Assembly (NCBI GenBank): GCA_964551495.1
Contig: CAZKCA010000006.1
Coordinates: forward strand, 1 to 35,920
Length of the DNA: 35,920 nt
Direction: 5' to 3'
From: an uncultured Candidatus Saccharibacteria bacterium
Lineage (GTDB): Bacteria; Patescibacteriota; Minisyncoccia; Phycocordibacterales; DATDWN01
Part shown: positions 3,163 to 35,901 of the stretch, piece after piece
Numbering within the stretch: position 1 is the first letter of the stretch
Layout: every line of letters starts with the position of its first letter
The notes under the pieces: generated by a model
Databases searched by the model: none
What the model was told of the DNA's origin: nothing
What the model saw: only the letters and a program-made list of their open reading frames with translations
Position numbers and translations under genes: made by a program

Positions 3163-3669
3163 ATGTCGTATTTTGCGGTAGGTTACATTCATGGAGGAGA
3201 CGTTGAGGATATGTTAACTTTTTGTGATTTGATCTCTGGAAGTAGAAAGCCGTACCACGCGTATTTTCTAGAGCAAGAACTCTTGAACATAGTACAGTTG
3301 TGGCCAGTATTTCTTCATCAGATGGAGGTTATTGATATTCTGAAGTCTAGTTACAGAAAATCTTTACGGAAACATAGGAAGTTGAAATCTATTGGACCAG
3401 TACCAAATCAAATTCGTAGCTTTGGCCCTGCTTTCAAAATGTTGAGATACAGACCGAATAATTTTAAAACCATAATTACTCTGGATATGAATAAAACACC
3501 GGCGCTTATCTCAGTTCAGGGACACTCTCAAAAAATTGTACATGAACTTGCTAAAAAGGTGGGTATAGGACCAATTTTTGAAGTTAAAGATGACAGTGTT
3601 TTACTTCCAAGTGAAATGCTGGATCTTCAATTCTCTGTTGGTAAGATTTTGCAAATTATTGGTAAGTAG
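3163..3669 (+). CDS. Hypothetical protein (168 aa), no recognisable motif
   Basis: Good promoter and AAGGAG RBS 6 nt before the ATG. Visibly higher GC than neighbouring genes. Lies between tRNA-Val and the tRNA-Glu tail elements. Confidence 0.55.
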   Translation: MSYFAVGYIHGGDVEDMLTFCDLISGSRKPYHAYFLEQELLNIVQLWPVFLHQMEVIDILKSSYRKSLRKHRKLKSIGPVPNQIRSFGPAFKMLRYRPNNFKTIITLDMNKTPALISVQGHSQKIVHELAKKVGIGPIFEVKDDSVLLPSEMLDLQFSVGKILQIIGK

Positions 3670-3819
3670 TTGGATCAACATAAAAAACACTCTTGGGATG
3701 TAAATGATTACAAAACAAGAGTAAGGATCCGCATTAATTTTTAATAGCGGAGTCAAAAAGTAACCGTGTCATATTCAAATAGGAATTATGATGCGGTTTT
3801 TGATTTATATAGCGATTGG

Positions 3820-4003
3820 TGACCTTATGGGGAATCTTCCGCGAGTAAAAATTTTCCGTCGAAAATTTTTCTCGTGTCCGCAGCTCGCGACCCGTCGTGT
3901 TCGACGGGTACCCCGCTCCGCTTTTCGATTCCTCACGAAAACCTATAACATAGGTTTTCTGTAGGGTCATGCAAAAATCGCCTTTCGGCGATTCTGCTTT
4001 GCA
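3820..4003 (-). repeat. tRNA-tail element Glu-2 (CGGAGC...GGTCGCGAG core type), ending in a degenerate third copy of the tRNA-Glu tail
   Basis: Minus-strand order is as follows. First a 15-bp perfect palindrome containing the tRNA tail (3961-3975 / 3998-4012). Then hairpin GAAAACCTATGTTATAGGTTTTC, then GAGGAATCGAA (inverted T-loop), then AAGCGGAGCGGGGTA. Then the CCCGTCG-AACA-CGACGGG hairpin, TCGCGAGCTGCGGACACGAG and the AAAAATTTTC-GACG-GAAAATTTTT hairpin. It ends in GATTCCCCATAAGGTCA (3820-3836, 2 mismatches to the tRNA-Glu tail). Confidence 0.75.
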
Positions 4004-4125
4004 TGACCCTACGGGGAATCGAACCTTACAGGATCAGTACCCCGATTGAGATATTTTATTTCGCAGGCTCATAAAATATCTCAATCGGGCTTCGATTCCC
4101 CAGACTTTTTTACTTCATAAAAATG
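4004..4125 (-). repeat. tRNA-tail element Glu-1 (long AT-hairpin type), ending in an exact 22-nt copy of the tRNA-Glu tail
   Basis: tgaccctacggggaatcgaacc occurs at 4004-4025 and inside tRNA-Glu at 4126-4147. The interior carries GGGGAATCGAAG (inverted T-loop), a 19-bp hairpin CCCGATTGAGATATTTTAT / ATAAAATATCTCAATCGGG, then GTACTGATCCTGTAA. Confidence 0.8.
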
Positions 4126-4197
4126 TGACCCTACGGGGAATCGAACCCCGATTACCGCCTTGAAAAGGCGATGTCCTAACCGTTAGACGATAGGGCC
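4126..4197 (-). tRNA. tRNA-Glu (anticodon TTC)
   Basis: GGCCCTA/TAGGGTC acceptor, TCGCC-TTTTCAA-GGCGG anticodon arm, CGGGG-TTCGATT-CCCCG T-arm. No CCA encoded. Confidence 0.9.
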
Positions 4198-8189: not shown

Positions 8190-9368
8190 TTAAGGTAAAA
8201 ATTGTTTTAACCACATCAAAACTTTTTTCCAAACATCAGAAGTTTTTTGTCTATTTCCCAAAGTATCTTTTCCTTCGTCAGAAAATCCTAAAACACAAAG
8301 TCCGTAAGCTACTGCCCAAGTAGAATCTTTTACTCTGCTTTTTTCCGGTAAGTTTAGCTCGGCTTTTTTTGAAGGAATTTTTAGGGCGGCTTTTGCCAAG
8401 TCTTCTATCGTTCCTATATTTCCACCTCCTCCTGTTATTATTATTCCGGCAGGTAAAAGCCCATTTCTTCCGAGTTTTTTCAAATGGTTTTCAATCAGTT
8501 CAAACATATCAGAAAGTCTAGCGTTTATTATTTCTTCCAATTTTTTCTTTGGATAGTTTTGGCTTCCCATAGATCCTATTTTTATATTCTCGGCTTCTTC
8601 CAAAGGAATTTTTAGTCCCAAAGCAATATCATTTGTAATATCGTTTGAGCCAATAGGGAAAACTTCTAGCGATATAGGAATATTATTTTCATAAACAACA
8701 ATTGAAATAGTTTCAGCTCCTATGTTGGCCAAAACACAGCCAGCAATTTTTTGTGTTTTTGTGAGAGTAACAAAACTAGCTGCGATAGGGGAAGCCATTA
8801 CGTCTATTACATAAATCCCCGCGTCATCCAAAGCTTGCATCAGATCGTTTAGATGGGGTTCTAAACAAGTAACAAAAAGAGTTTTAACTTCAAGTTTTAC
8901 ACCTTTGAGTCCCAATGGTGTTTTTGCTGGAACAGACTTTCCATCTATTTTGTATGATACAGGTATAGCATGAAGTATTTTTCTGTTTTGTATGAGAGTA
9001 GAAGGAATATCTTGTTCACACACCTCGTTTACTTTATCTATATCAAGAGAAGTTATTTCTAGATCTGCACGACTAGTCATTATTGTGCCGGTAGAGGTAA
9101 TACCAGAAAGACCAATTCCTCCTATAGAAATAAAAGCTTTTCTTATTTTTATACCGGAAGTTTTTTCGGCTTGAGATATGGCTGTTTTTATACTTGAGGT
9201 GACATCTTCTGTGTTGAGTATGTAGCCGTGTCGCATTCCTTTTGACTCAGCTATTCCAGTTCCAATGATGCGAGGAATTGATTTTCCTCCGTTTTTAATT
9301 AGTTCGGCTACTACCACTTTTACTTGGTAAGTACCAATATCTATACCAACTGTAATGTTGTGCATCAT
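8190..9368 (-). CDS. ftsA: Cell division protein FtsA (actin-like ATPase)
   Basis: VGIDIGTYQVKVVVAE phosphate-1 motif and IIITGGGGNIG adenosine motif. Located immediately upstream of ftsZ. Confidence 0.9.
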   Translation of the reverse strand: MMHNITVGIDIGTYQVKVVVAELIKNGGKSIPRIIGTGIAESKGMRHGYILNTEDVTSSIKTAISQAEKTSGIKIRKAFISIGGIGLSGITSTGTIMTSRADLEITSLDIDKVNEVCEQDIPSTLIQNRKILHAIPVSYKIDGKSVPAKTPLGLKGVKLEVKTLFVTCLEPHLNDLMQALDDAGIYVIDVMASPIAASFVTLTKTQKIAGCVLANIGAETISIVVYENNIPISLEVFPIGSNDITNDIALGLKIPLEEAENIKIGSMGSQNYPKKKLEEIINARLSDMFELIENHLKKLGRNGLLPAGIIITGGGGNIGTIEDLAKAALKIPSKKAELNLPEKSRVKDSTWAVAYGLCVLGFSDEGKDTLGNRQKTSDVWKKVLMWLKQFLP

Positions 9369-10078: not shown

Positions 10079-11257
10079 CTATTTGGTGGTTTTTTCTAGT
10101 TTAGTCAAAAAAGCCGGCAAATCCTTTATATCTACTGTTTCTTGTTCTCTTGTGGTTATGTTTCTAACCACTACTGTGTTATCTATAGCTTCCTTTTGTC
10201 CAACTATCAAAACATGGCTTGCGTGGTTATATTCGGCTCCAGTTAATTGTCCTGTGATTTTGTCCTTGGTTAATGAATGGTAAACAGGTATTTTGTTTCT
10301 TCTTAAAATTTCAACAATATTTAGAGCCTTTAGTTTTGCTGTATTTCCTAGTTGAACTAGATAAAAACTTGGTTTTTTTATGTTTTTTACAAGGATCTTT
10401 TTTGGGGCCTTTTTACTTTTTATTATCAGAGTACATCCTATACACGATAATTCCTTTTTTAGTCCTATTTTCTTTGCCAAGCTATTATATCTGTATCCAT
10501 AAGCAAGAAGTGTTCCTTCTTTATCTTTTTTGCTATCAAAATCTCTAATTTCAAATATGGTATGAGATGAATAAAGTTTGTTTCCGACTAATTGAGATTT
10601 TATTTTGTAAGGTATTTCAAAAGCCTCTAAGTATTCTAATGTTTCTTTAAAATAATTTTTACTAAAATCAGATAGGTAGGCGATTGACTGAGGAAGACCT
10701 TCTGGCATAGGTCCCATTTCTCTCGCTATAGAATAAATATTTTTTTTACCCTCAGATTTTATTTTTGTAGGTAGATTCGGTAGATTTTTTCTAAAATATG
10801 AGTTTAGTTCTTTTTCAAATTTAGAAACAGATTCTTTGTCGCCTATGCTGTTTATGTCTATATAGACATCTTTGTGACCAAGATCATAAAGCATAGATAG
10901 AGCTGTTTTTATACATAGAGCTTCGCTAGTATTTTTGTTTGACCCCATTATTTCAAGGCCGTATATATTTTCGTTTGGTTTTTTTCTTTGACCGCTTCCA
11001 GGAAATGGTTTTTTATAATGAATCATTATAGGTTGTTGTTCGGAGTATAAATTATTTTGGTCGTACCAATTTAAAAGAGATATTTTTTCTTCTATATCAT
11101 TGTATAGTTCATATTCTTTAAATTGTTTTGATTTTTTGTATACGTCTGGAGTTATGGTTGGAGTATTGATGATAGAAAATCCATATTGGATAGCAATTTC
11201 ACCTATTTTATCAGTCTCTGAAACCAATTCTTTATTTATTTTCTTATCTTTTTTCAT
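10079..11257 (-). CDS. Histidyl-tRNA synthetase-like (class II aaRS / HisZ-like) protein with divergent catalytic motifs
   Basis: C-terminal HGTP-type anticodon-binding domain (FYLVQLGNTAKLKALNIVEILRRNKIPV...HVLIVGQKEAIDNTVVVRNITTREQ). Positions equivalent to FRYERPQ and GGGRYD read IHYKKPF and YGYRYN. Confidence 0.55.
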   Translation of the reverse strand: MKKDKKINKELVSETDKIGEIAIQYGFSIINTPTITPDVYKKSKQFKEYELYNDIEEKISLLNWYDQNNLYSEQQPIMIHYKKPFPGSGQRKKPNENIYGLEIMGSNKNTSEALCIKTALSMLYDLGHKDVYIDINSIGDKESVSKFEKELNSYFRKNLPNLPTKIKSEGKKNIYSIAREMGPMPEGLPQSIAYLSDFSKNYFKETLEYLEAFEIPYKIKSQLVGNKLYSSHTIFEIRDFDSKKDKEGTLLAYGYRYNSLAKKIGLKKELSCIGCTLIIKSKKAPKKILVKNIKKPSFYLVQLGNTAKLKALNIVEILRRNKIPVYHSLTKDKITGQLTGAEYNHASHVLIVGQKEAIDNTVVVRNITTREQETVDIKDLPAFLTKLEKTTK

Positions 11258-20093: not shown

Positions 20094-20522
20094 ATGAAAA
20101 AAACCTTAATACATTCATTAATAATTTTTAGCTTAGCTTTCTTTGCTTTAACTTCTGTATCATTTGCTCAATCAGGTATAGAAGGTAACCAGCCTCCAGC
20201 TACACCAAGCGAAACTTCTGGCTATAGAGGGGTCATCCCTAATTGTCAGGGAAACACTTGTACTTGGAATGATATTATTAAGACAATAGATTATCTTGTT
20301 GATTTGGCTATGGGTATTGCTCTTGTATTTTCTTCGGCAGTTATAGCTTTTGCTGGATTTAAATATATGTCTTCCGGAGACAATCCAGGCAAGAGAAAAG
20401 AGGCAAATACAATGCTTCAAAAAGTTGTTATTGGAATTGTTTTGGTTATGGGTGCTTGGGTAATAGTTAATTTAATATTTACAGCTTTAGGTGCAGATCA
20501 GTCCATAAGATTTGCAATATAA
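20094..20522 (+). CDS. VirB2/TrbC-like (T4SS-type) pilin-family small membrane protein, paralog 1 of 6
   Basis: Signal peptide ending FAQ, then two hydrophobic helices joined by the FKYMSSGDNPGKRKE loop. Confidence 0.55.
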   Translation: MKKTLIHSLIIFSLAFFALTSVSFAQSGIEGNQPPATPSETSGYRGVIPNCQGNTCTWNDIIKTIDYLVDLAMGIALVFSSAVIAFAGFKYMSSGDNPGKRKEANTMLQKVVIGIVLVMGAWVIVNLIFTALGADQSIRFAI

Positions 20523-20526
20523 AAAT

Positions 20527-20946
20527 ATGAAAAAAACTTTAATACATTCATTAATAATTTTTAGCCTAGCTTTCTTTGCTTTAACTTCTGTATCATTTGC
20601 TCAATCAGGTATAGAAGGTAACCAGCCTCCAGCTACACCGAGTACTCCGAGCAATAATACGAGTTATGATATAAAAATAACAAACCCTTTGAAGGTGGGG
20701 GATAAGCTTACGGACATAATAGTGGCTGTTTTAAATAATGTTGTTATGCCTATAGCAGCAGTGGCAGCTGTGCTCTATATAATCTTGGCTGGTTTCAAAT
20801 ACGTTTCTGCCAGAGGTAACCCTGCCAAGATACAGAGTGCTCATCAAAATCTATTATGGGCGCTAGTTGGAACTGGTATTTTGTTAGGTGCAGCTGGTAT
20901 TTCTAGGGTTTTACAAAATACAGTAAATCAGTTTTTAATAAATTAA
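20527..20946 (+). CDS. VirB2/TrbC-like pilin-family protein, paralog 2
   Basis: True start at MKKTLIHS. The first 120 nt are nearly identical to paralog 1. Helix-loop-helix GFKYVSARGNPAKIQ. Confidence 0.55.
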   Translation: MKKTLIHSLIIFSLAFFALTSVSFAQSGIEGNQPPATPSTPSNNTSYDIKITNPLKVGDKLTDIIVAVLNNVVMPIAAVAAVLYIILAGFKYVSARGNPAKIQSAHQNLLWALVGTGILLGAAGISRVLQNTVNQFLIN

Positions 20947-20951
20947 TATTT

Positions 20952-21341
20952 ATGAAATATTTATTAAAATTATCTATATTTTTAATACCATCTTTTACTT
21001 TAGCTTTTTCCTTAGGAGGAGATAGTACTTTTAAAAACGTTATTTTTGAAATTGTAAGTATACTAGAACTGGCTTTACCTCTTTTATTTGGGGGTGCCCT
21101 GATTATTTTCTTTTGGGGATTATCAAAATTTGTTATAAATTCTGACAATGAGACTGAATTAAAAAAAGGCAAAAACTATATGCTCTGGGGCATTTTGGCT
21201 TTGTTTATATTAATTTCTTACAGAACAATTGTTGGTTTGGTAGTCAGAGATTTGGAATTTGGTGATGGAAATACTATTCCTCAGCTTCCAACAGGAGGAA
21301 ATGTAGAGAGTGTTAATAGTAATATAAATTTTAATCCTTAA
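20952..21341 (+). CDS. VirB2/TrbC-like pilin-family protein, paralog 3
   Basis: Signal peptide; FFWGLSKFVINSDNETELKKGKNYMLWGILALFIL. Confidence 0.55.
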   Translation: MKYLLKLSIFLIPSFTLAFSLGGDSTFKNVIFEIVSILELALPLLFGGALIIFFWGLSKFVINSDNETELKKGKNYMLWGILALFILISYRTIVGLVVRDLEFGDGNTIPQLPTGGNVESVNSNINFNP

Positions 21342-21344
21342 GAT

Positions 21345-21728
21345 ATGAAAAAAATATATAAAAATATAATTATATTATTAGTATTGTTTCCAAGTTTTTC
21401 TTTTGCTGCTTTAGATGGTCTCAAAGGGCTTATGAGTGAGTCTTTGGGTTTGTTAAATCTAGGTATAAGGATTATTTTTGCATTAGCTTTAGTTTTATTT
21501 TTCTGGGGTCTTGTCCAATTTATAATGAAGTCAGGGGATGCTAAATTACGAGATGAAGGTAAAAAAAGGATGATCTGGGGTATAATCGCTTTGTTTGTAA
21601 TGGTTTCTATATACGGAATATTAAACTTTGTTGGAAGTTTAGTTGGCATAAATCCAAATTCATCTGGGTCTCTAGAAGTTTGTCCTCCTGGTACTATCAA
21701 TGCTGGAGGCACTGGTCCTTGTGATTAA
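21345..21728 (+). CDS. VirB2/TrbC-like pilin-family protein, paralog 4
   Basis: Signal peptide; FFWGLVQFIMKSGDAKLRDEGKKRMIWGIIALFVMVSIYG. Confidence 0.55.
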   Translation: MKKIYKNIIILLVLFPSFSFAALDGLKGLMSESLGLLNLGIRIIFALALVLFFWGLVQFIMKSGDAKLRDEGKKRMIWGIIALFVMVSIYGILNFVGSLVGINPNSSGSLEVCPPGTINAGGTGPCD

Positions 21729-21828
21729 TTATCCACATTTTCTTGTATTTTAGCCAAATTTATACTATAATTTGGAGGTAGTTATTCGGTCGTTAGTTTT
21801 ATTAAAATATTTTAATAATTATAAAATA

Positions 21829-22182
21829 ATGAAGAAATTTATTTACACTGCTTTGTCTTTGTCACCTATGTTGGCTTTGGCACAAGAAGGAAACCTTGGT
21901 GGAGTTGAAAGATTGGTTAGACAATTTGGAGATATCCTAAATAGTCTTGTTATTCCAATATTGTTTGCTATTGCTATCATTTACTTCTTCTGGGGTCTTG
22001 TAAAATACATCAAGTCTGCAGGAGATCCAAAGGCAGCAGCTGAGGGAAGATCTATAATGATCTGGGGTATAATAGCTCTAGTTGTTATGGTTTCTGTTTA
22101 TGGTCTTATAGCTTGGGTTCAAAGTGCTTTTGGAATCCAAGGTGGAGCTACACCTACTCTTCCTACAGTTCCAGGTCTATAA
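21829..22182 (+). CDS. VirB2/TrbC-like pilin-family protein, paralog 5
   Basis: Start at MKKFIYTALS (the track starts at 21772). FFWGLVKYIKSAGDPKAAAEGRSIMIWGIIALVVMVSVYG. Confidence 0.55.
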   Translation: MKKFIYTALSLSPMLALAQEGNLGGVERLVRQFGDILNSLVIPILFAIAIIYFFWGLVKYIKSAGDPKAAAEGRSIMIWGIIALVVMVSVYGLIAWVQSAFGIQGGATPTLPTVPGL

Positions 22183-25213: not shown

Positions 25214-25394
25214 GTGGGCAAGGGGAGACTTGCCTCCAAATTTTCTTTCGTCGTCACTCAAGAAAATTCTAGGCGCCAGATTTCCGACAAGCTCTGTTGA
25301 GCTTGTAGACCGGAAATCTGTTCGAGTCACCTCACACAAAAATATATTTTTGCTATTGCTCCGACGAAAAAACCGGCTTTCGCCGATTTTCGTG
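25214..25394 (-). repeat. tRNA-tail element Leu-TAG (Leu type), ending in a 17-nt copy of the tRNA-Leu(TAG) tail
   Basis: gtgggcaaggggagact occurs at 25214-25230 and 25394-25410. Minus-strand order is as follows. Hairpin+U-tract, then GGTGACTCGAAC (inverted T-loop). Then a nested hairpin AGATTTCCG[GTCT ACAAGCTC-AACA-GAGCTTGT]CGGAAATCT and GGCGCCTAG. Then the AATTTTCTT-GAGTGACGACGA-AAGAAAATT hairpin, then the tail copy. Confidence 0.8.
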
Positions 25395-25476
25395 TGGGCA
25401 AGGGGAGACTCGAACTCCCAAGCCGTGAGGCACTAGTTCCTAAGACTAGCGCGTATACCAATTCCGCCACTTGCCC
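25395..25476 (-). tRNA. tRNA-Leu (anticodon TAG), class II long variable arm
   Basis: GGGCAAG/CTTGCCC acceptor, CTAGT-CTTAGGA-ACTAG anticodon arm, GGGAG-TTCGAGT-CTCCC T-arm. No CCA encoded. Confidence 0.9.
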
Positions 25477-25815: not shown

Positions 25816-25894
25816 GAATCATGTGCACCCAGCAGGAATTTCTCCTACAATTTTCTTTCGTCGTCACTCAAGAAAATTCTAGGCGCCAGATTTT
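25816..25894 (-). repeat. tRNA-tail element unit Lys-C (truncated Leu-type unit), ending in a 19-nt exact copy of the tRNA-Lys tail
   Basis: 25819-25837 equals 26035-26053. The 45-nt block aattttctttcgtcgtcactcaagaaaattctaggcgccagattt is identical to the Leu-TAG element. Confidence 0.8.
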
Positions 25895-26029
25895 AATCTT
25901 TGTGGTCACAGATAATTTCCTCGTCGTCACTCGGAAATTTCCGCGACCCCGTCTCGCTTGTTTTGCTTGGTAGCAAAACATAGCTCCGCCTTGCACATGT
26001 ACTAAAAAATCTGGAGCAGTCCAGATTTT
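25895..26029 (-). repeat. tRNA-tail element unit Lys-D (proximal), including its hairpin/U-tract module
   Basis: The hairpin AAAATCTGGACTGCTCCAGATTTTTT follows tRNA-Lys. Then ACATGTGCAAGGCGGAGC, a GTTTTGCT-ACCA-AGCAAAAC hairpin and GCGAGACGGGGTCGCGG. Then an AATTTCC-GAGTGACGACGA-GGAAATT hairpin and ATCTGTGACC + ACAAAGATT. Confidence 0.75.
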
Positions 26030-26039
26030 ATTAGTCATG

Positions 26040-26112
26040 TGCACCCAGCAGGATTCGAACCTGCGACCATCTCCTTAAGAGGGAGTTGCTCTACCACCTG
26101 AGCTATGGATGC
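26040..26112 (-). tRNA. tRNA-Lys (anticodon CTT)
   Basis: GCATCCA/TGGGTGC acceptor, ACTCC-CTCTTAA-GGAGA anticodon arm, GCAGG-TTCGAAT-CCTGC T-arm. No CCA encoded. Confidence 0.9.
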
Positions 26113-26115
26113 GTA

Positions 26116-26263
26116 TGTGCTCGGAGTGGGAATCTCCCTCGAAATTTTTTCGTCGCCACTCAAAAATTTCTGGGCACCGGTTTGTCGACAAGCCCTGTTG
26201 GGCTCGTAGACCGACAAACCGTTCGATTCTCACGCACAAAGCTTTGCTTTGTTTCCGTGGCTG
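26116..26263 (-). repeat. tRNA-tail element Leu-TAA (Leu type), ending in a 19-nt copy of the tRNA-Leu(TAA) tail
   Basis: tgtgctcggagtgggaatc occurs at 26116-26134 and 26262-26280. Same module order as the Leu-TAG element, with compensated stem changes. The distal tail copy lies 3 nt from the 5' end of tRNA-Lys. Confidence 0.8.
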
Positions 26264-26345
26264 TGCTCGGAGTGGGAATCGAACCCACATCCCTTTCGGG
26301 ACAACATTTTAAGTGTTGCGTGTATACCAGTTCCACCATCCGAGC
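26264..26345 (-). tRNA. tRNA-Leu (anticodon TAA), class II
   Basis: GCTCGGA/TCCGAGC acceptor, CAACA-CTTAAAA-TGTTG anticodon arm, long variable arm, GTGGG-TTCGATT-CCCAC T-arm. Confidence 0.9.
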
Positions 26346-26346
26346 A

Positions 26347-26826
26347 TTAAATATTTTTACCAATATTTTTTCCTCTATGTGTAGGTTGAAGACTATGACA
26401 GTTTGGACACAAAATCCTCAAATTTTCTAGTCTATTATCGTACCTATTACCATTTACGTGGTCTAGTTCTAAAGGAATTCTACCGTCTGTCGATATTTTA
26501 GCCCAACCACATTGTTCACATTTTGGCTCTTTTAGTTTAGCTGAAAAAAGTCTTTTTTTCAACTTAAAACTCTGATATGTACTTTTTGAAACTAGAATTT
26601 TATAAAGTGGTATTATTGGATTTTCTCCAAATTTCATACCCTTATTCCATGTCATTCCAGTAAAATGAGAAGTATCTAGGTTATTTTGTTTTACGTATTT
26701 CTTAACTTGTTCGTAGTTTCCACCAGTAGGTTTCAGTCCTAAAAGTTTTATAACATTTCTAATACTTTTAGATTTTTTAACTGCCTTTATGAGCTGATCA
26801 TCTGACCATTTTCTAATTCCACCCAT
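26347..26826 (-). CDS. Free-standing HNH endonuclease (homing-endonuclease-like) with an N-terminal HTH-like domain
   Basis: CEQCGW...LELDHVNGNRYDNRLENLRILCPNCH is the zinc-bound HNH motif. The stop codon lies 1 nt from the tRNA-Leu(TAA) 5' end. Confidence 0.8.
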   Translation of the reverse strand: MGGIRKWSDDQLIKAVKKSKSIRNVIKLLGLKPTGGNYEQVKKYVKQNNLDTSHFTGMTWNKGMKFGENPIIPLYKILVSKSTYQSFKLKKRLFSAKLKEPKCEQCGWAKISTDGRIPLELDHVNGNRYDNRLENLRILCPNCHSLQPTHRGKNIGKNI

Positions 26827-27302: not shown

Positions 27303-28802
27303 TTATTTTTCTACCATTACAAAATTTTCTATATAATCTCCTGGGGCTAATTCTGTTCTTGCTTCAAGCATAACTCCACATTCTTTTCCTTCTCCTACTT
27401 CATCAGTTTTTACTTTTTGAGATTCTAATCCTCTAATTTTGCCTTCACCAATTTTTTCATCTCTTCTTAAAATTTTTATCATAGATCCAACTGATAATGT
27501 TCCACTTTCTACTCTACAACCAACTATTTGCTTATCTTTTATTTTGCTAAAGGTTTTTAACACTTTTGTTCGGCCTTTTATTTCTTCTTCCAATATTTTA
27601 GGAGTTAGATTTTCCAATTTTTCTTTTAGAAATTCGCTTAGTTTGTATATTATATTGAAATTATGAATTTGAATTTCATTTCTTTCAGCTAGGGTTTTGG
27701 CAGGTGAATCTACTTTTGTGTTAAATCCTATAACTAAAGTTTTTTCATTTCCTAAAACAGCTTTTATATCATTTTCAGATATAGTTCCTACTCCAGAGTA
27801 AACTATTTCAGGTATAATTCTGTCATTGCCTAGTTTTTCTACTTCATATACAACGGCCTCCAAACTTCCAGCCGTATCAGCTTTCAAAACTATGGGTATT
27901 ATATTATCGCAAGACTTTTCTTTTATTTCTTTTTTATTTTCTTTAGCAGAAAGCTTATTCTTTTCCACGAATTCTAAAGCTTCATTTTTGGTTTCAAAAG
28001 TTTGGAATATCGCTCCAACTTCTGGCATACCATCCCAACCAATTATTTTTATTGGTTTTGAAAAACTAGCTTCATCTATTTGTTTTCCAAGATAATCCTC
28101 TATTATTCTAAGTGGAGCAAGACTTGTGCCAGAAGCTACAAACATTCCTTTTTTCATACTTCCATTTTTTATTACACAAGTAGCAGATATTCCTTTTTTG
28201 ATGTCACAGTTACTTTCTATTATCACACCAGAAGCTTTTTCATTTGGATCAGCAGACAATCCCTCCATTTCAGAAACCAAAATAATCATATCCAAAAGTT
28301 CGGATATCCCTTGTCCTGTTTTTGCTGATATAGGAACAAAAGGAACATCTCCTCCGTATCCTTCTACATAAACACCATTTTCTGCCAGACTTTGTTTTGT
28401 TCTGTCTACACTTGCTTCTGGTCTATCTATTTTATTTATAGCAACTATAAAAGGTATTTTTTCATTTTTTATAGATTTCAAAGCCTCAATTGTTTGAGGT
28501 TTTACTCCATCTTCCGCAGAAACAACAAGTATAGCAATATCAGCCACATTTGCCCCTCTTTTTCTGATACCAGAAAAGGCTTCGTGACCAGGTGTGTCTA
28601 GAAAAGTTATTTTATATTCTTTGCCAGTTTGATCCTTGTGTAAAACTTCATAAGCCGAAATATGTTGAGTGATTCCTCCTGCTTCATCTAGTGGCTTTAG
28701 ATTATTTCTAATAAAAGAAAGCAGGGTGCTTTTACCATGGTCTATATGGCCCATTATGGCAATTATTGGCGGTCGTTCTGTTTTTTGTGTATGCATGGTC
28801 AT
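27303..28802 (-). CDS. infB: Translation initiation factor IF-2 (short form lacking the N-terminal extension)
   Basis: GTPase motifs GHIDHGKST, DTPGH and NKID, plus C-terminal IF-2 domains, 499 aa. Confidence 0.9.
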   Translation of the reverse strand: MTMHTQKTERPPIIAIMGHIDHGKSTLLSFIRNNLKPLDEAGGITQHISAYEVLHKDQTGKEYKITFLDTPGHEAFSGIRKRGANVADIAILVVSAEDGVKPQTIEALKSIKNEKIPFIVAINKIDRPEASVDRTKQSLAENGVYVEGYGGDVPFVPISAKTGQGISELLDMIILVSEMEGLSADPNEKASGVIIESNCDIKKGISATCVIKNGSMKKGMFVASGTSLAPLRIIEDYLGKQIDEASFSKPIKIIGWDGMPEVGAIFQTFETKNEALEFVEKNKLSAKENKKEIKEKSCDNIIPIVLKADTAGSLEAVVYEVEKLGNDRIIPEIVYSGVGTISENDIKAVLGNEKTLVIGFNTKVDSPAKTLAERNEIQIHNFNIIYKLSEFLKEKLENLTPKILEEEIKGRTKVLKTFSKIKDKQIVGCRVESGTLSVGSMIKILRRDEKIGEGKIRGLESQKVKTDEVGEGKECGVMLEARTELAPGDYIENFVMVEK

Positions 28803-29385: not shown

Positions 29386-30564
29386 ATGTTTTTTAGTAAT
29401 AAAAAAGATTCCAGAAAGGTTTTTTTGGATTACGCTTCTTCTACGCCTATAGATCCTGGGGTTTTGCACAAGATGAGTCTTTATCTTGAAAGTCATTTTG
29501 CCAATCCAAGAGCTTTGTATAGTCAAGCAGAGGAAGCCAAAGAAGAAATGAAAATTGCAAAAAGTGATATTGCAAATGTTTTTTCTTGTAAGCCAGATGA
29601 AATTTATTTTACTTCTGGGGGTACTGAGTCAAACAATCTGGCTATTATGGGAGTGTTTTATGCTAATAAAGACAAAGGTTTTAAACCTCACTTTATAACG
29701 ACAGAAATAGAACACTCTTCGGTTCTAGAGGTTTTTAAAGAAATAGAAGATAGGGGTGGGGAAGTTACTTATTTGAAAGTGTCTTCAGAAGGACTGTTTT
29801 CTTTAGAAGAATTAAAAAATTCTATAAAAAAGGAAACTGTTTTAGTTTCTATTGCTTATGCAAATAATGAAATTGGAATAATTAATCCAATTAAGGAAGT
29901 TTCAAAAATTATAAAAGAATGGAAAAGAGAAAAAGAAACTAATTTTCCGTATTTCCATTGCGATGCATGTCAGGCTGTTTTGTATCTTTCTTTGGATGTT
30001 TCAAAAAATGGTTTAGACATGATGACTTTAGATGGTTTAAAAATGTATGGTCCTAGAAATTGCGGTATTTTGTATATAAAAAATGAAGTTCAAATAAAAC
30101 CTATTATGTATGGTGGAGGACATCAAAGAGGAATACGTAGTGGAACAGAAGATATTTCTTCTGTTTTGGGTATGGCATATGCCCTAGATTTGGCAGAGAA
30201 TTTAAAAGAAGAAGAATCAAAAAGACTTTTAAAAATTAGAGATTATGCAATAGGTAAAATTTTAGAAAAGTTTGAAGGAGCTTCTTTAAACGGCTCAAGG
30301 ACCCAAAGACTTCCAAACAATATAAATATTTGTTTTCCAGATAAAGATGCAGAGTTTTTAGTAGTTTCTTTGGATGTTTTTGGTATAGCGGTATCTTATT
30401 CTTCATCTTGTAATACTTTGAAAGAAGATTCTTCCTCTTTTGTTATAAAAGCTTTAGATAAAAAAGATTGTTCGGCAAGTAGCTTGAGGATTACTTTAGG
30501 CAGAGATACTCGAGTGGAAGATATTGATTATCTTGTGGAAAAACTTGAACAAATTATAAAATAA
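29386..30564 (+). CDS. Cysteine desulfurase / class V aminotransferase (NifS/IscS-like)
   Basis: FLDYASSTPIDP, TSGGTESNNLAI, HCDACQA, GLKMYGP (PLP-Lys region) and SYSSSC (catalytic Cys loop). Confidence 0.8.
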   Translation: MFFSNKKDSRKVFLDYASSTPIDPGVLHKMSLYLESHFANPRALYSQAEEAKEEMKIAKSDIANVFSCKPDEIYFTSGGTESNNLAIMGVFYANKDKGFKPHFITTEIEHSSVLEVFKEIEDRGGEVTYLKVSSEGLFSLEELKNSIKKETVLVSIAYANNEIGIINPIKEVSKIIKEWKREKETNFPYFHCDACQAVLYLSLDVSKNGLDMMTLDGLKMYGPRNCGILYIKNEVQIKPIMYGGGHQRGIRSGTEDISSVLGMAYALDLAENLKEEESKRLLKIRDYAIGKILEKFEGASLNGSRTQRLPNNINICFPDKDAEFLVVSLDVFGIAVSYSSSCNTLKEDSSSFVIKALDKKDCSASSLRITLGRDTRVEDIDYLVEKLEQIIK

Positions 30565-34200: not shown

Positions 34201-34283
34201 GCGTCGGTGGTAGAGTGGTCAATTACAACAGACTGTAAATCTGTCGGCTTCGGCCTACGAAGGTTCGAATCCTTCCCGGCGCA
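34201..34283 (+). tRNA. tRNA-Tyr (anticodon GTA), class II long variable arm
   Basis: GCGTCGG/CCGGCGC acceptor, ACAGA-CTGTAAA-TCTGT anticodon arm, GAAGG-TTCGAAT-CCTTC T-arm. No CCA encoded. Confidence 0.9.
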
Positions 34284-34446
34284 CAAAATAATTCCCGTAA
34301 GGGAATTTTTTGATTGACGCCGGAAGTAAACCTCTGGGAGAGGTTTACGTTAGGATTCGAAAACCTGTGATAACTTTTTGTGCGAGTAGCAACAAAAAGT
34401 AGAACAGGTGTACCGTTCATGTAATGAAAGAATCCTTCCCGGCGCA
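34284..34446 (+). repeat. tRNA-tail element Tyr (long AT-hairpin type), ending in a 17-nt copy of the tRNA-Tyr tail
   Basis: gaatccttcccggcgca occurs at 34267-34283 and 34430-34446. The interior starts with the hairpin AATTCCC-gtaa-GGGAATT plus T-run. Next comes an inverted tail copy, TGACGCCGGAAG-[hairpin]-GTTAGGATTCGAA. Then a long hairpin AACCTGT...ACAGGT and GTACCGTTCATGTAATGAAA. Confidence 0.8.
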
Positions 34447-34450
34447 AAAT

Positions 34451-34479
34451 TTGATTTTTTAGTCTAAATATGCTATAAT
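34451..34479 (+). promoter_or_regulatory. Sigma70-like promoter for the PQ-loop-like gene
   Basis: TTGATT, 17-nt spacer, TATAAT, starting 5 nt after the distal tRNA-Tyr tail copy. AAGGGGG RBS before the GTG at 34501. Confidence 0.6.
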
Positions 34480-34500: not shown

Positions 34501-35070
34501 GTGAATACCTACCAAATCGTGAGTACCTTAGGTGCTCTGCTTCTTTACATTCCGCTTGCTTATCAGGTATGGACAGGAAAGGTAAAACAAAATCTTGCAA
34601 CTTGGATTCTTTGGGGGATTCAGGATGCAATCGCTTGTGCAGCAATTTTTGCACAGGGTGGCAATTGGTATATTGCCGGTGCTTACACATTGGGTTGTAT
34701 TGTTATACTATCTTGCATGGTAAGATCAAAAAATCTGACATGGGGACTATTTGAAACAATTACAGCTTCTACAGTAGCGATCTGTCTGGTCGGCTGGTAC
34801 TTTTCTGGACCATATCTTGCAAATATTTTATCTGTGGTAGGTTTGGCTTTAGCCACTTTCCCACAGATAAAAGATGCTTGGAAATATCCAGAGACAATGC
34901 CTGTCGGGATTTATTTCGGGTATACCATTGTAAACTTTTTGGCTACAGCTGGTGGGAATGCTTGGACGGTAGAAGAAAGACTCTATCCAGTAGTAGCAGG
35001 GTTTTGTTGTCTTATTGTGGCGGTATTACCACTTAGAAAAGTTAAATTCATTAAGCCCCATAGCGCCTAA
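34501..35070 (+). CDS. Polytopic membrane protein, PQ-loop-like (tentative)
   Basis: About 6-7 TM helices and a LATFPQIKDAWK PQ motif. GC is above background. The hairpin terminator at 35056-35090 encloses the stop codon. Confidence 0.5.
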   Translation: MNTYQIVSTLGALLLYIPLAYQVWTGKVKQNLATWILWGIQDAIACAAIFAQGGNWYIAGAYTLGCIVILSCMVRSKNLTWGLFETITASTVAICLVGWYFSGPYLANILSVVGLALATFPQIKDAWKYPETMPVGIYFGYTIVNFLATAGGNAWTVEERLYPVVAGFCCLIVAVLPLRKVKFIKPHSA

Positions 35071-35690: not shown

Positions 35691-35830
35691 TTTGCGGGAG
35701 ATGGAGGAATCGGTCAGGAATATTTTTTTCGTCGTCACTCGAAAAATTTCCCGACCCGGACTCGCGACCAAGTCTGCTGACTTGGTACCCGCTCCGTCTT
35801 TCGATTCCAAAGATAAAACCTTTGGTTTTG
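35691..35830 (-). repeat. tRNA-tail element Trp (CGGAGC...GGTCGCGAG core type), ending in a 22-nt exact copy of the tRNA-Trp tail
   Basis: tttgcgggagatggaggaatcg occurs at 35691-35712 and 35827-35848. Minus-strand order is as follows. Hairpin CCAAAG-gttttat-CTTTGG, then GGAATCGAA (inverted T-loop) and AGACGGAGCGGGTA. Then a CCAAGTC-AGCA-GACTTGG hairpin, TCGCGAGTCCGGGTCGGG, and a hairpin with loop GAGTGACGACGA. Then ATTCCTGACC and the tail copy. Confidence 0.8.
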
Positions 35831-35901
35831 CGGGAGATGGAGGAATCGAACCCCCGACAACGGTTTTGGAGACCGTTGTTATACCACTTAACTAATCTCC
35901 C
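35831..35901 (-). tRNA. tRNA-Trp (anticodon CCA)
   Basis: GGGAGAT/ATCTCCC acceptor, ACGGT-CTCCAAA-ACCGT anticodon arm, GGGGG-TTCGATT-CCTCC T-arm, discriminator G. No CCA encoded. Confidence 0.9.

Follow-up and report, generated by a model that had tools for sequence, protein, structure and literature searches.

A folded single-stranded DNA can serve as a recombination site, as does attP(+) of CTX phage, whose integrated form consists of the site, a short spacer, the inverted site, the rest of the element and the site again. tRNA-like structures and minihelices are known from the tRNA-like domain of tmRNA, from viral TLS and from mascRNA. Among integrons, folded single-stranded attC sites are more stable on one strand than on the other (PMC5027507). 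Genomic islands and prophages with tyrosine integrases split the 3′ part of tRNA and tmRNA genes and restore the gene (Islander; PMC4383910). Cis-mobilizable elements (CIMEs) are decayed ICEs or IMEs that retain attL and attR, and tandem accretion has been reported for integrative elements (PMC5704250).

We have analysed a stretch of 35,920 nucleotides (the window) in which a tRNA-Tyr gene is followed by an element of ~160 nt. With moderate confidence, we read this element (~34267-34429) as a miniature, non-coding, non-autonomous, site-specific integrative element residing in the T-loop between C56 and G57. It belongs to a family of elements of ~110-220 nt that is common in Patescibacteria (CPR bacteria). 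A full-text literature search found no description of such elements, and the family of miniature mobile elements is apparently new to the literature.

The tRNA-Tyr element and its folding

The locus comprises the following features.

34201-34283/4, plus strand: tRNA-Tyr (GTA), intact, with no encoded CCA (ARAGORN; Rfam tRNA, 60.3 bits)
34264-34270, plus strand: T-loop TTCGAAT of tRNA-Tyr; the discriminator A is 34283
34266..34267, plus strand: probable insertion point, T-loop C56/G57 (TTC/GAAT), from the repeat boundaries and the family-wide junction
34267-34283, plus strand: tail copy 1 (G57 to A73), within the working tRNA-Tyr; exact 17-nt repeat
34284-34314, plus strand: trailer with terminator-like hairpin AATTCCC-gtaa-GGGAATT (34290-34307), then a T-run
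34315-34326, plus strand: inverted copy part 1, TGACGCCGGAAG, imperfectly complementary to the acceptor 3′ strand
34327-34348, plus strand: small hairpin dividing the inverted copy (arms 34326-35 and 34339-48)
34349-34361, plus strand: inverted copy part 2, GTTAGGATTCGAA
34362/3-34409, plus strand: long body hairpin P2, subtype B, with covariation at the helix base
34410-34429, plus strand: subtype-B signature, GUACCG and then the small hairpin TTCA-TGTAA-TGAA
34430-34446, plus strand: tail copy 2 of tRNA-Tyr, read as the displaced original 3′ fragment (attR-like)
34451-34479, plus strand: promoter-like site TTGATT-17-TATAAT for the ORF at 34501-35070; native flank, outside the element

An earlier, sequence-only reading had reported that 34430-34446 is identical to the 3′ end of tRNA-Tyr up to the discriminator. 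This is correct: the direct repeat GAATCCTTCCCGGCGCA occurs at 34267-34283 and 34430-34446 and is exact over 17 nt, where recurrence of a given 17-mer within 450 nt has a chance expectation of ~3e-8. The hairpins, the T-run and the split inverted copy also lie in the order and at the positions that it gave. Part 1 of the inverted copy pairs with the acceptor 3′ strand with one bulge per side, and 21 nt of the small hairpin (TAAACCTCTGGGAGAGGTTTA) are identical in the relative L125. In part 2, positions 34352-61 are a 10/10 complement of the T-loop plus T-stem of tRNA-Tyr (34264-73), so that the inverted copy spans the insertion point. The motif GTACCGTTCATGTAA is located at 34410-24, and the UAC and the loop GUA of the subtype-B signature are invariant in the family. 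No ORF lies within the 163-nt insert. The promoter noted 5 nt past the tail copy is present, but it lies outside the element. It is kept in the relative L120, which has no element here; the window and L120 become homologous again at 34448, directly after tail copy 2.

When 34313-34446 is folded alone, the structure of lowest energy is the closed one (−51.9 kcal/mol, z = −6.59; 0/200 shuffles fold as well), with a closing helix that contains bulges and one inserted hairpin. The proposal that inverted and direct copies can close the element into a junction thus holds for the isolated element, and the closing helix is maintained in homologous elements through compensatory changes; part 1 of the inverted copy is kept in the orthologues L125, L130 and L138. 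The Tyr subtype is paired at 92% compared with 61% in shuffles, and its covariation score of 0.819 (0.223 for shuffles) was attained by 0/500 shuffles. The full tRNA-plus-element transcript behaves differently. There the genuine tail is favoured over the tail copy as partner of the inverted copy (−99.3 vs −92.8 kcal/mol), and the segment AGGATTCGAA pairs with the real tail with p ~0.98 and with the tail copy with p ~0.02. The inverted segments had both been matched to the tail copy; the AGGATTC-type pair of 7 nt stands, but AGGATTCGAA fits the tRNA's own tail better, with 10/10 matches at 34264-73 and only 7 nt paired in the tail copy.

These pairings bear on the purpose originally suggested for the element, a tRNA-like minihelix ending at the discriminator. 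An acceptor/T-like helix of this kind might be processed by RNase P, RNase Z or a CCA-adding enzyme to give a small RNA ending at 34446, in which the small hairpin would occupy the place of the D and anticodon arms. The isolated fold (z = −6.6) is as such a model predicts, and the tail copies in the window are perfect to the discriminator. We nevertheless regard it as very improbable. Besides the preference of the inverted copy for the genuine tail in the full transcript, the bases of the T-loop are paired rather than looped, and conservation across the family does not extend to the acceptor part: among 23 subtype-B elements the acceptor half of the tail copy is intact in 9 and at most 5/8 identical in 11, so about half have decayed, and members with an A1 body retain merely ~4 nt of 'tail'. 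The inverted copy complements the intact target, that is, the sequence across the left edge of the repeat, in 49/56 elements. Its complementarity extends to the genomic trailer, and to CCA only at genes that encode it. Finally, members behind the protein genes topA and rpsI repeat the ends of coding sequences and have no tRNA-like end. The resemblance to tRNA is best attributed to where the element inserted.

Several further candidates were discarded. A retroelement-like primer-binding site for mature tRNA does not fit complementarity that runs into the genomic trailer and includes CCA only where it is encoded. A degenerate duplicated tRNA as the source of the 5′ strand of the helix fails in that the segment is a true reverse complement (AGG-ATTCGAA) and has C where the tRNA 5′ strand has a wobble T. 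A kissing contact of the CUGC loop of the terminator with the CAGCAG loop of P2 was inconsistent across the examples inspected. Rfam 15 covariance models recovered only tRNAs at gathering score, and nothing relevant up to E = 10 in the Leu/Lys cluster and the Tyr elements; inspection by eye revealed no hammerhead, twister or HDV-like core.

Family members in the window and across Patescibacteria

An exact tail copy of 14-22 nt follows 100-220 nt downstream of 6/8 tRNAs in the window. The other members are these.

3819-4003, minus strand: Glu-2, with an A-type body and GACGG loop, in tandem with Glu-1
4026-4147, minus strand: Glu-1, subtype B, behind tRNA-Glu; tail copy 4004-4025
25214-25410, minus strand: subtype A member behind tRNA-Leu(TAG); tail copy 25214-25230
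25823-26053, minus strand: composite member behind tRNA-Lys, with both an A1 body and a partial A body; tail copy 25823-25837
26117-26280, minus strand: subtype A member behind tRNA-Leu(TAA); tail copy 26117-26134
35694-35848, minus strand: member behind tRNA-Trp; tail copy 35694-35712, then the native terminator

The tRNA-Glu gene thus carries two elements in tandem, the second of which ends in a third tail copy (3819-3836) with 2 mismatches. Its body is identical at 80/90 positions to the body behind tRNA-Tyr in L125, and the window's two B bodies are just 57% alike. The window has two matches to the motif GTACYGNTNNTGTAA where 0.18 would be expected, and both lie within the Tyr and Glu elements. 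The suggestion that a GTAC(C/T)G/TGTAA motif links the Tyr element with Glu-1 proved sound: it marks a real subtype (GTACYG..TGTAA), represented by more than 20 elements that follow tRNAs for Trp, Tyr, Arg, Leu, Lys, Ser, Glu and Gly.

Across the family the layout is a gene end, a hairpin or terminator, an inverted copy of the target, a structured body and a second copy of the gene end. The bodies are of 55-130 nt and several unrelated types, and their hairpins and loops are conserved over many candidate phyla. A junction ..TTC/GA(A/T)TC.. recurs family-wide, its position in the T-loop being the left edge of the direct repeat. The repeat ranges from ~11 to ~70 nt or more, in every case runs to the end of the gene, and so is not a fixed target-site duplication of the kind a transposase would make; the copies also appear to differ in ancestry, and that explanation was set aside. 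The inverted arms follow each target's own T-stem sequence.

Presence of the element is patchy. In an unbiased sample of tRNAs (n = 156, made up of the 8 in the window and of those that lie close to clpB in relatives), a tail copy of at least 11 nt was found at 26/156 and an inverted copy of at least 9 nt at 36/156 (17-23%). The survey of related tRNA-Tyr loci that had been proposed shows the element recurring, but at only ~12-16 of ~62 clpB-linked loci, with ~46-50 lacking it. In L123, tRNA-Trp is an empty site and directly joins the same terminator that trails the window's Trp tail copy; for the window's exact tRNA-Tyr allele and flank, no empty site was found among the loci retrieved. Bodies are swapped, as between the window and L125 (ClpB 87% identical), where the left part is common, including the 21-nt identical hairpin, and the bodies differ. 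Tandem arrays occur in L041, L087, L067 and L119 as well as at the window's tRNA-Glu.

The same family is found behind topA (4 genomes) and rpsI, with the end of the coding sequence duplicated. Differences between the two copies of the coding-sequence end are mostly synonymous (15 synonymous vs 1 non-synonymous in L082, 6 vs 2 in L037 and 5 vs 1 in L119), as would fit copies that each evolved as a functional gene end in a separate genome. The L082 inverted copy agrees with the upstream of the two copies and not with the downstream one. These comparisons fit a different ancestry of the copies at protein-gene targets. A synonymous bias could also arise by duplication in place followed by replacement of the working gene through homologous recombination.

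Duplication in place has also to be considered for the elements as a whole. Template-switching at the palindromic terminator and at the self-complementary T-loop TTCGAA, followed by drift, would account for an inverted copy that terminates exactly at TTCGAA, and the trailer and terminator are duplicated as well in some cases. Among 355 tRNAs, however, there is no body-less inverted/direct junction, the shortest body being 54 nt; many genes and genomes share conserved body families; and the gene-end copies are biased to synonymous differences. We see only the slimmest chance that local duplication is the explanation. A variant in which a template-switch palindrome later received a body was rejected on the same lack of body-less intermediates among the 355 tRNAs.

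Body structure is selected on one strand only: the sense strand is 7 kcal/mol more stable in 54/56 bodies and has an excess of G-U pairs (98 vs 41). Elements are always co-oriented with the preceding gene, and some lie within polycistronic tRNA stretches; the tail copy behind tRNA-Leu(TAA) ends 4 nt before tRNA-Lys, so this element is probably co-transcribed with tRNA-Lys. Such features would suit a host cis-acting RNA module in the 3′ trailers of tRNAs and some mRNAs. Transcribed with the gene, it would control termination, 3′ processing (for instance through an RNase III-type stem) or transcript separation by means of its hairpins and alternative pairings; the inverted copy would have two alternative partners, the real tail (through the terminator) and the tail copy, the latter acting as an 'anti-anti-tail' that releases the real tRNA. 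The strict co-orientation, the Leu(TAA)-Lys arrangement, the sense-strand structure with its excess of G-U pairs, the strong covariation, the similar energies of the competing pairings and the conservation of the family over many Patescibacteria all agree with this. Strand asymmetry was dropped as proof of RNA because single-stranded attC DNA has the same bias. Most orthologous tRNA-Tyr loci do without the element, unrelated body types interchange at one locus, about half of the subtype-B elements have a decayed tail copy, and the Tyr copy sits behind a terminator and has no promoter-like site of its own; a processing module also leaves the mainly synonymous differences in the coding-sequence ends unexplained. 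On balance we think a host RNA module unlikely.

Proposed site-specific integration and possible pairing-guided mobility

In the integrative-element model that we favour, the element would have inserted in the tRNA-Tyr gene between C56 and G57 and supplied a replacement gene end, tail copy 1 (34267-83). With a replacement tail carried by the element, the tRNA stays intact. The original tail would have been displaced downstream as 34430-46. That tail copy 1 is the element-borne one is proposed by analogy with topA and rpsI, whose inverted copies agree with the upstream gene end. The element would also deliver a terminator, the inverted copy of the target site split by the small hairpin, and the body (P2 plus the GUACYG/UGUAA hairpin). 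In a single-stranded form, pairing of the inverted copy with the tail would close the body into a three-way junction and thereby recreate a duplex image of the target site. Insertion would then proceed by site-specific recombination, the folded inverted-copy/tail helix serving as the recombination site in the manner of integron attC or CTX-phage attP, with an enzyme working in trans and a circular or single-stranded intermediate.

Some observations sit less easily with this model. No recombinase, transposase or reverse transcriptase occurs among the scanned ORFs of the 36-kb window: in 28 ORFs compared with Pfam there was no integrase, transposase or RT domain, and the ORFs are housekeeping genes or have no Pfam match. 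Since the inverted copy follows the T-stem of each target, a classical integrase model needs either specialised lineages or a templated copy. Co-orientation, polycistronic positions and conserved hairpins and loops are explained at least as well by a role at the RNA level.

Other mobile DNA was considered and rejected. Four ORFs of 392 aa are not insertion sequences; they encode TsaD, FtsA, a HisRS-like protein and an aminotransferase, and their equal length is coincidental. The subtype-A motif pattern had 0 matches in 2.9 million IMG/VR viral contigs, and an origin from a phage or satellite was rejected on this ground.

A bolder reading, unlikely though worth stating, is that these elements constitute a new class of gene-less mobile DNA that chooses its sites by nucleic-acid pairing, with the inverted copy as a programmable guide reading T-loops, topA and rpsI across the insertion point. 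The folded body would be catalytic or recruiting, as RNA or as single-stranded DNA, and the cost of insertion would be repaid by the replacement gene end delivered. As a rival mechanism to the integrative model, RNA-mediated or nucleic-acid-guided mobility would have the body act as a catalytic or guide RNA or as a folded strand, with insertion through an RNA or cDNA intermediate or by a guide-dependent recombinase. It draws on the complementarity of the inverted copy to the intact target across the insertion point, which varies with the target and extends to topA and rpsI, on the RNA-like bodies (covarying stems, G-U bias, invariant short loops) and on the lack of a recombinase in cis. We consider it rather unlikely: even with E values as high as 10, Rfam gave no ribozyme, intron or guide-RNA match, no gene for a reverse transcriptase or an IS110/TnpB-like protein lies near the elements, several unrelated body types would all need one activity, and guide-directed insertion alone would not produce the foreign-looking gene ends in the repeats.

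If the integrative model is right, integrative mobile DNA can be reduced to ~150 non-coding bases. What such an element still carries is a terminator and a folded module, together with an inverted image of its target and a new end for the gene. The hosts have among the smallest bacterial genomes known, and occupation of 6/8 tRNA genes in the window and of 17-23% of tRNAs in the sample of relatives is unexpected in genomes considered streamlined. The model would point to a trans-acting recombination or guide-based system in Patescibacteria, and would explain assembly breaks and odd 'partial tRNA' matches in these genomes. The displaced fragments would be natural markers of gene flow, because they would come from other lineages, and the elements would offer compact, sequence-addressable integration sites as testable tools for organisms that now have none.

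Comparison with known systems

MITE, REP and Correia-type repeats (PMC3184786) are similarly small, non-coding, multi-copy, hairpin-forming and intergenic, need factors in trans and are co-transcribed with their neighbours. Here, in contrast, the inverted repeats copy each target rather than the element, orientation to the gene is fixed, and the flanking repeat is ~11-70 nt with copies possibly of different ancestry, so that the element-specific terminal inverted repeats and fixed target-site duplication of a MITE are lacking. With tRNA-like structures the elements share a helix whose 3′ strand is the acceptor/T 3′ strand and can end at the discriminator; they differ in that the T-loop is paired, the 3′ half is not conserved and members at protein genes have no such end, and no acceptor-type 3′ end is conserved over the family.

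CIMEs resemble the elements in having att-like flanking repeats and no recombination genes, and in lying in tandem with others at one gene end. The attL/attR-type repeats without genes are present here, but CIMEs arise by decay and have no conserved structure themselves, whereas the interior in our family is conserved and structured and holds no gene remnants of a decayed ICE or IME.

The islands catalogued by Islander resemble the elements in what happens to the target. In them, too, the direct repeat represents a regenerated target plus a displaced 3′ fragment reaching from the loop to the gene end, the 3′ ends of protein genes are possible targets, and accretion occurs in tandem. An intact target with a displaced 3′ fragment is found at 6/8 tRNAs and at topA and rpsI. 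Unlike these islands, which span kilobases, the elements are ~110-220 nt and contain no integrase gene or other ORF; inside them lie an inverted copy of the target and a folded body that is conserved, covaries and is specific to one strand; and they occupy a large share of one genome's tRNA genes (6/8 in the window).

The folded form resembles integron attC (PMC5027507), likewise a bulged, imperfect inverted repeat whose terminal structure varies and is sometimes branched, in which only one strand folds well with an excess of G:T, structure is kept while sequence varies, and the cassette has no recombinase. Strand-asymmetric folding with unpaired features is found here too. The element arms ..ATTCGAA(C) and (G)TTCGAAT are one mismatch from the RYYYAAC and GTTRRRY consensus quoted in PMC5027507, and the T-loop GTTCGAA fits the GTTRRRY core only with a mismatch, with the repeat usually starting at G57 and not after the G of GTT. 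Further differences are that both an integron platform (intI, attI) and a cassette ORF are missing, that the elements are scattered behind tRNA genes, topA and rpsI in housekeeping regions instead of forming an array, and that the target is the interior of a gene that needs repair. For CTX phage the correspondence is one of layout: the order of its integrated form is the order of parts in the Tyr element.

The tRNA-Tyr element and its fold

The window has a G+C content of 35.5% and holds eight tRNA genes. Behind tRNA-Tyr, the hairpins, inverted segments, 17-nt tail copy and promoter-like site described in a sequence-only reading were all found:

34201–34283, plus strand: tRNA-Tyr, one of the eight tRNA genes; its final 17 nt, GAATCCTTCCCGGCGCA, run from T-loop G57 to the discriminator and are repeated exactly at 34430–34446
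34290–34307, plus strand: terminator-like hairpin and T-run, between the tRNA-Tyr tail and the tail copy
34315–34326, plus strand: inverted segment TGACGCCGGAAG, 3′ of the terminator-like hairpin
34326–34348, plus strand: 10-bp hairpin, between TGACGCCGGAAG and GTTAGGATTCGAA
34349–34361, plus strand: inverted segment GTTAGGATTCGAA, 5′ of the long hairpin
34363–34409, plus strand: long hairpin, between GTTAGGATTCGAA and GTACCGTTCATGTAATGAAA
last part before the tail copy, plus strand: GTACCGTTCATGTAATGAAA, 3′ of the long hairpin
from 5 nt past the tail copy, plus strand: TTGATT-17-TATAAT, promoter-like by sequence

The closed fold proposed for 34313–34446 was reproduced when this RNA was folded in isolation (−51.9 kcal/mol, z = −6.6). 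When the full transcript (34201–34446) is folded, however, the partner of the inverted copy is the genuine tail (p ~0.98) rather than the tail copy (p ~0.02), at −99.3 kcal/mol compared with −92.8 for tRNA, terminator and closed element. The inverted and direct tail copies can close the element, but AGGATTCGAA matches the tail copy over 7 nt only, against 10/10 for the genuine T-loop/T-stem. In the predicted minimum-energy fold of the full transcript the 5′ acceptor strand of the tRNA pairs with the downstream tail copy, and the element would resemble a giant T-arm insertion in a long pre-tRNA.

A family of elements behind gene ends

The tRNA-Tyr tail copy is a genuine observation, with a wider scope than was visible to the first reading. 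Six of the eight window tRNAs have an exact copy of their own tail (14–22 nt) 100–220 nt downstream, and tRNA-Glu is followed by two tandem elements and a third, slightly decayed tail. All share one layout: tail, hairpin or terminator, imperfect inverted tail copy, structured body and tail again, the inverted copy frequently being split by a small hairpin. There are at least three body types. Type A has a hairpin with a GAGTGRCGACGA cap or related GACG loop (5 window matches, 0.03 expected); type A1 has the same body with the repeat reduced to ~4 nt; in type B a long hairpin is followed by GUACYG and then a small hairpin, whose loop is UGUAA or AGUAG, and the type includes both the Tyr element and Glu-1, one of the tandem pair, as the shared subtype proposed for them implied. 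No Rfam family corresponds to these elements, and our literature search found no description of them.

Scanning one genome per species for the type-A motif gave at least 118 loci. Among the matches listed, nearly all are Patescibacteria MAGs (labelled Nomura-, Zambryski-, Taylor-, Vogel-, Kaiser- and Lloydbacteria, Paceibacterota and 'Saccharibacteria'), the motif nearly always lies 80–150 nt 3′ of a tRNA and shares its strand, and the tail copy commonly begins at a constant offset past it. The closest relatives of the window ClpB are Paceibacteria/Parcubacteria proteins. An unbiased sample of 156 tRNAs, from clpB neighbourhoods of relatives and the window, has a tail copy of ≥11 nt in 26 cases and an inverted copy of ≥9 nt in 36.

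Several loci are unusual. A 5.5-kb 'Nitrospira' contig with a typical A1 element behind tRNA-Ile (L047, JBEBJM010000042.1) is probably a mis-binned Patescibacteria contig. At L024, L033, L042 and L068, elements with Ser-like tail copies follow a conserved ..TTCGAACTTTGTCCAA.A.ACACCGCA.. recognised by neither ARAGORN nor Rfam, which may be a tRNA with an intron or of unusual form, or else a different RNA gene. At L045 no host tRNA was detected for the element, and ~0.8 kb 5′ of it lies a group I intron (3604–3885, minus strand; Rfam 71.9 bits). At L086 (700–1000) a B body stands 5′ of tRNA-Glu beside a truncated tRNA-like 5′ copy, flanked by a ~45-nt direct repeat of upstream spacer and first tRNA bases; this may reflect tandem duplication or insertion in opposite polarity.

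The type-B alignment (20 elements, eight tRNA identities) has GGAxTCGAA, UAC.G and GUA invariant, and RNAalifold returns three helices: the T-loop/T-stem part of the inverted copy/tail copy pairing, the P2 base and the small hairpin. Compensatory changes occur in 12 of 14 pairs; once the small hairpin is given a closing G-C pair, 92% of cells are paired compared with 60.7% in shuffles, and covariation scores 0.819 (against 0.223), a level that 0/500 shuffles reach. A slid-partner control gave at most 51% paired. The type-B structure is real, and the inverted tail copy, whose loss in homologues would have counted against the first reading, is thus kept in them. The invariant UAC 5′ of the small hairpin (34410–34424; alignment columns 77–79, 87–89) complements the loop GUA, a possible 3-bp pseudoknot whose invariant triplets give no covariation signal.

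Protein genes are targets too. In four genomes an A1 body immediately follows the DNA topoisomerase I gene (in L119 two, in tandem), and in one further genome the ribosomal protein S9 gene is followed by one, with identical layout: CDS end, hairpin, inverted copy, body, CDS end again. The inverted copy here spans the insertion point (GTTTTTGTG for CACAAAAAC).

These topA and rpsI members, which have no tRNA-like end, argue against the earlier idea of a tRNA-mimicking minihelix, as does the preference of the inverted copy for the genuine tail. Furthermore, the acceptor half of type-B tail copies is fully intact in only 9/23 and at most 5/8 identical in 11/23, and the inverted copy is also complementary to the genomic trailer, not to CCA. 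In 49/56 elements complementarity passes the left repeat edge, which makes the inverted copy an image of the intact target; the count has a construction bias, inverted copies having been defined by matching the real tail. A mechanism of the guide or ribozyme type would account for such tracking of each target, though we give it little chance.

Empty sites, exchange of bodies and ancestry of the copies

Among ~62 relatives with a clpB-adjacent tRNA-Tyr, only ~12–16 have an element there. L120, 88.5% identical in nucleotides to the window over 7.3 kb, is without the window's Tyr element, and homology restarts at 34448, immediately past the tail copy. The terminator found past the tRNA-Trp tail copy in the window directly adjoins tRNA-Trp in L123. 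L125 (ClpB 87%) and the window have a common terminator, inverted copy and identical 21-nt hairpin, yet their tRNA-Tyr bodies differ (A in L125, B in the window); the L125 body matches that of Glu-2, the other tandem element, at 80/90 positions. The window Tyr body is 75–76% identical to bodies at tRNA-Glu (L067) and tRNA-Leu (L095), and only 57% to Glu-1. The tRNA-Lys element (25838–26053, minus strand) is a composite of a complete A1 body and an A-body 3′ half, ~44 nt of which recur unchanged in the tRNA-Leu(TAG) element; this is evidence that elements have recombined with each other within one genome.

Endonuclease genes occur nearby. An HNH ORF (26347–26826, minus strand; 159 aa) between tRNA-Cys and tRNA-Leu(TAA) is probably a free-standing homing endonuclease within the tRNA cluster. 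In the close relatives L120 (7330–8280) and L123 (6702–7659), which have a different allele of tRNA-Tyr, a LAGLIDADG gene separates this tRNA from clpB; 5′ of the endonuclease gene L120 has a window-type tRNA-Tyr D-arm remnant, GGTAGAGCAGTCAATTGCAA, which suggests that an endonuclease and tRNA cassette replaced the resident gene. LAGLIDADG genes also stand behind tRNA-Leu(CAA) in L120 and L122. Elsewhere in the window, a run of three or more, possibly five, small paralogous ORFs (20094–22182, plus strand) includes three that, when scanned, matched the T4SS pilin/TrbC family, and a short IF-2 (27303–28802, minus strand; 499 aa) fits a reduced Patescibacteria genome. Four 392-aa ORFs (1796–2974, 8190–9368, 10079–11257, 29386–30564), considered as a repeat, are unrelated proteins (TsaD, FtsA, HisRS-like and one with a class-V aminotransferase orthologue in L120) of coincidentally equal length.

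The topA end copies of L082 agree at 50/69 nt, with 15 synonymous codon differences and 1 non-synonymous; the counts are 6 and 2 in L037 and 5 and 1 in L119, and the rpsI copies read AAG CGC TAA and AAA CGA TAA. A duplicate made in place and then unused would lose its protein sequence; most likely each copy evolved in a separate genome, as the end of a working gene. Template-switching duplication in place is very improbable, as no body-less intermediates were found among 355 tRNAs. For L082 it is the upstream topA copy that the inverted copy matches, which suggests that upstream copy, hairpin, inverted copy and body move as a unit.

A host RNA function that acts in tRNA trailers, on termination or processing, would fit the co-orientation of elements with their gene, the likely co-transcription at Leu-TAA/Lys and the wide conservation of the family, but leaves patchiness, body swapping, tail decay and the synonymous-biased duplicates unexplained, and we consider it unlikely. 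The sense strand folds ~7 kcal/mol better in 54/56 bodies, with 98 G-U pairs compared with 41, which means that selection on the structure acts in a single strand. The same bias is seen in folded single-stranded attC sites (PMC5027507) and thus cannot separate RNA from DNA.

A proposed insertion mechanism and known systems

In the integration scheme we favour, the Tyr element (~34267–34429) would have inserted between C56 and G57 of the T-loop. Across the family the junction is TTC/GA(A/T)TC (slash, insertion point), and the rpsI site, GGTC/GAAG, is similar. The element would bring a new tail and terminator, with which tRNA-Tyr survives insertion, and push the old tail (34430–34446) downstream to abut the native promoter of the next gene. 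Repeats range from ~11 to more than 57 nt and always reach the gene end, which rules out a fixed target-site duplication. Tandem arrays are found at L041, L087, L067 (B then A), L119 and the window tRNA-Glu; repeated integration at one gene end yields such arrays (PMC5704250).

Once single-stranded or excised, the element would pair its inverted copy with its own tail, closing the body into a three-way junction and recreating a duplex image of the target. By analogy, this helix may be the recombination site of an enzyme acting in trans. The window ORFs scanned with Pfam were housekeeping genes or had no match, and the type-A motif had no match in viral contigs. The family is most suitably classed with tRNA-gene-integrating elements, as a new variant that is miniature and non-coding. 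CTX phage uses a folded attP; both this site and the integron attC have the arrangement proposed here, and the folded site of the element is reminiscent of them.
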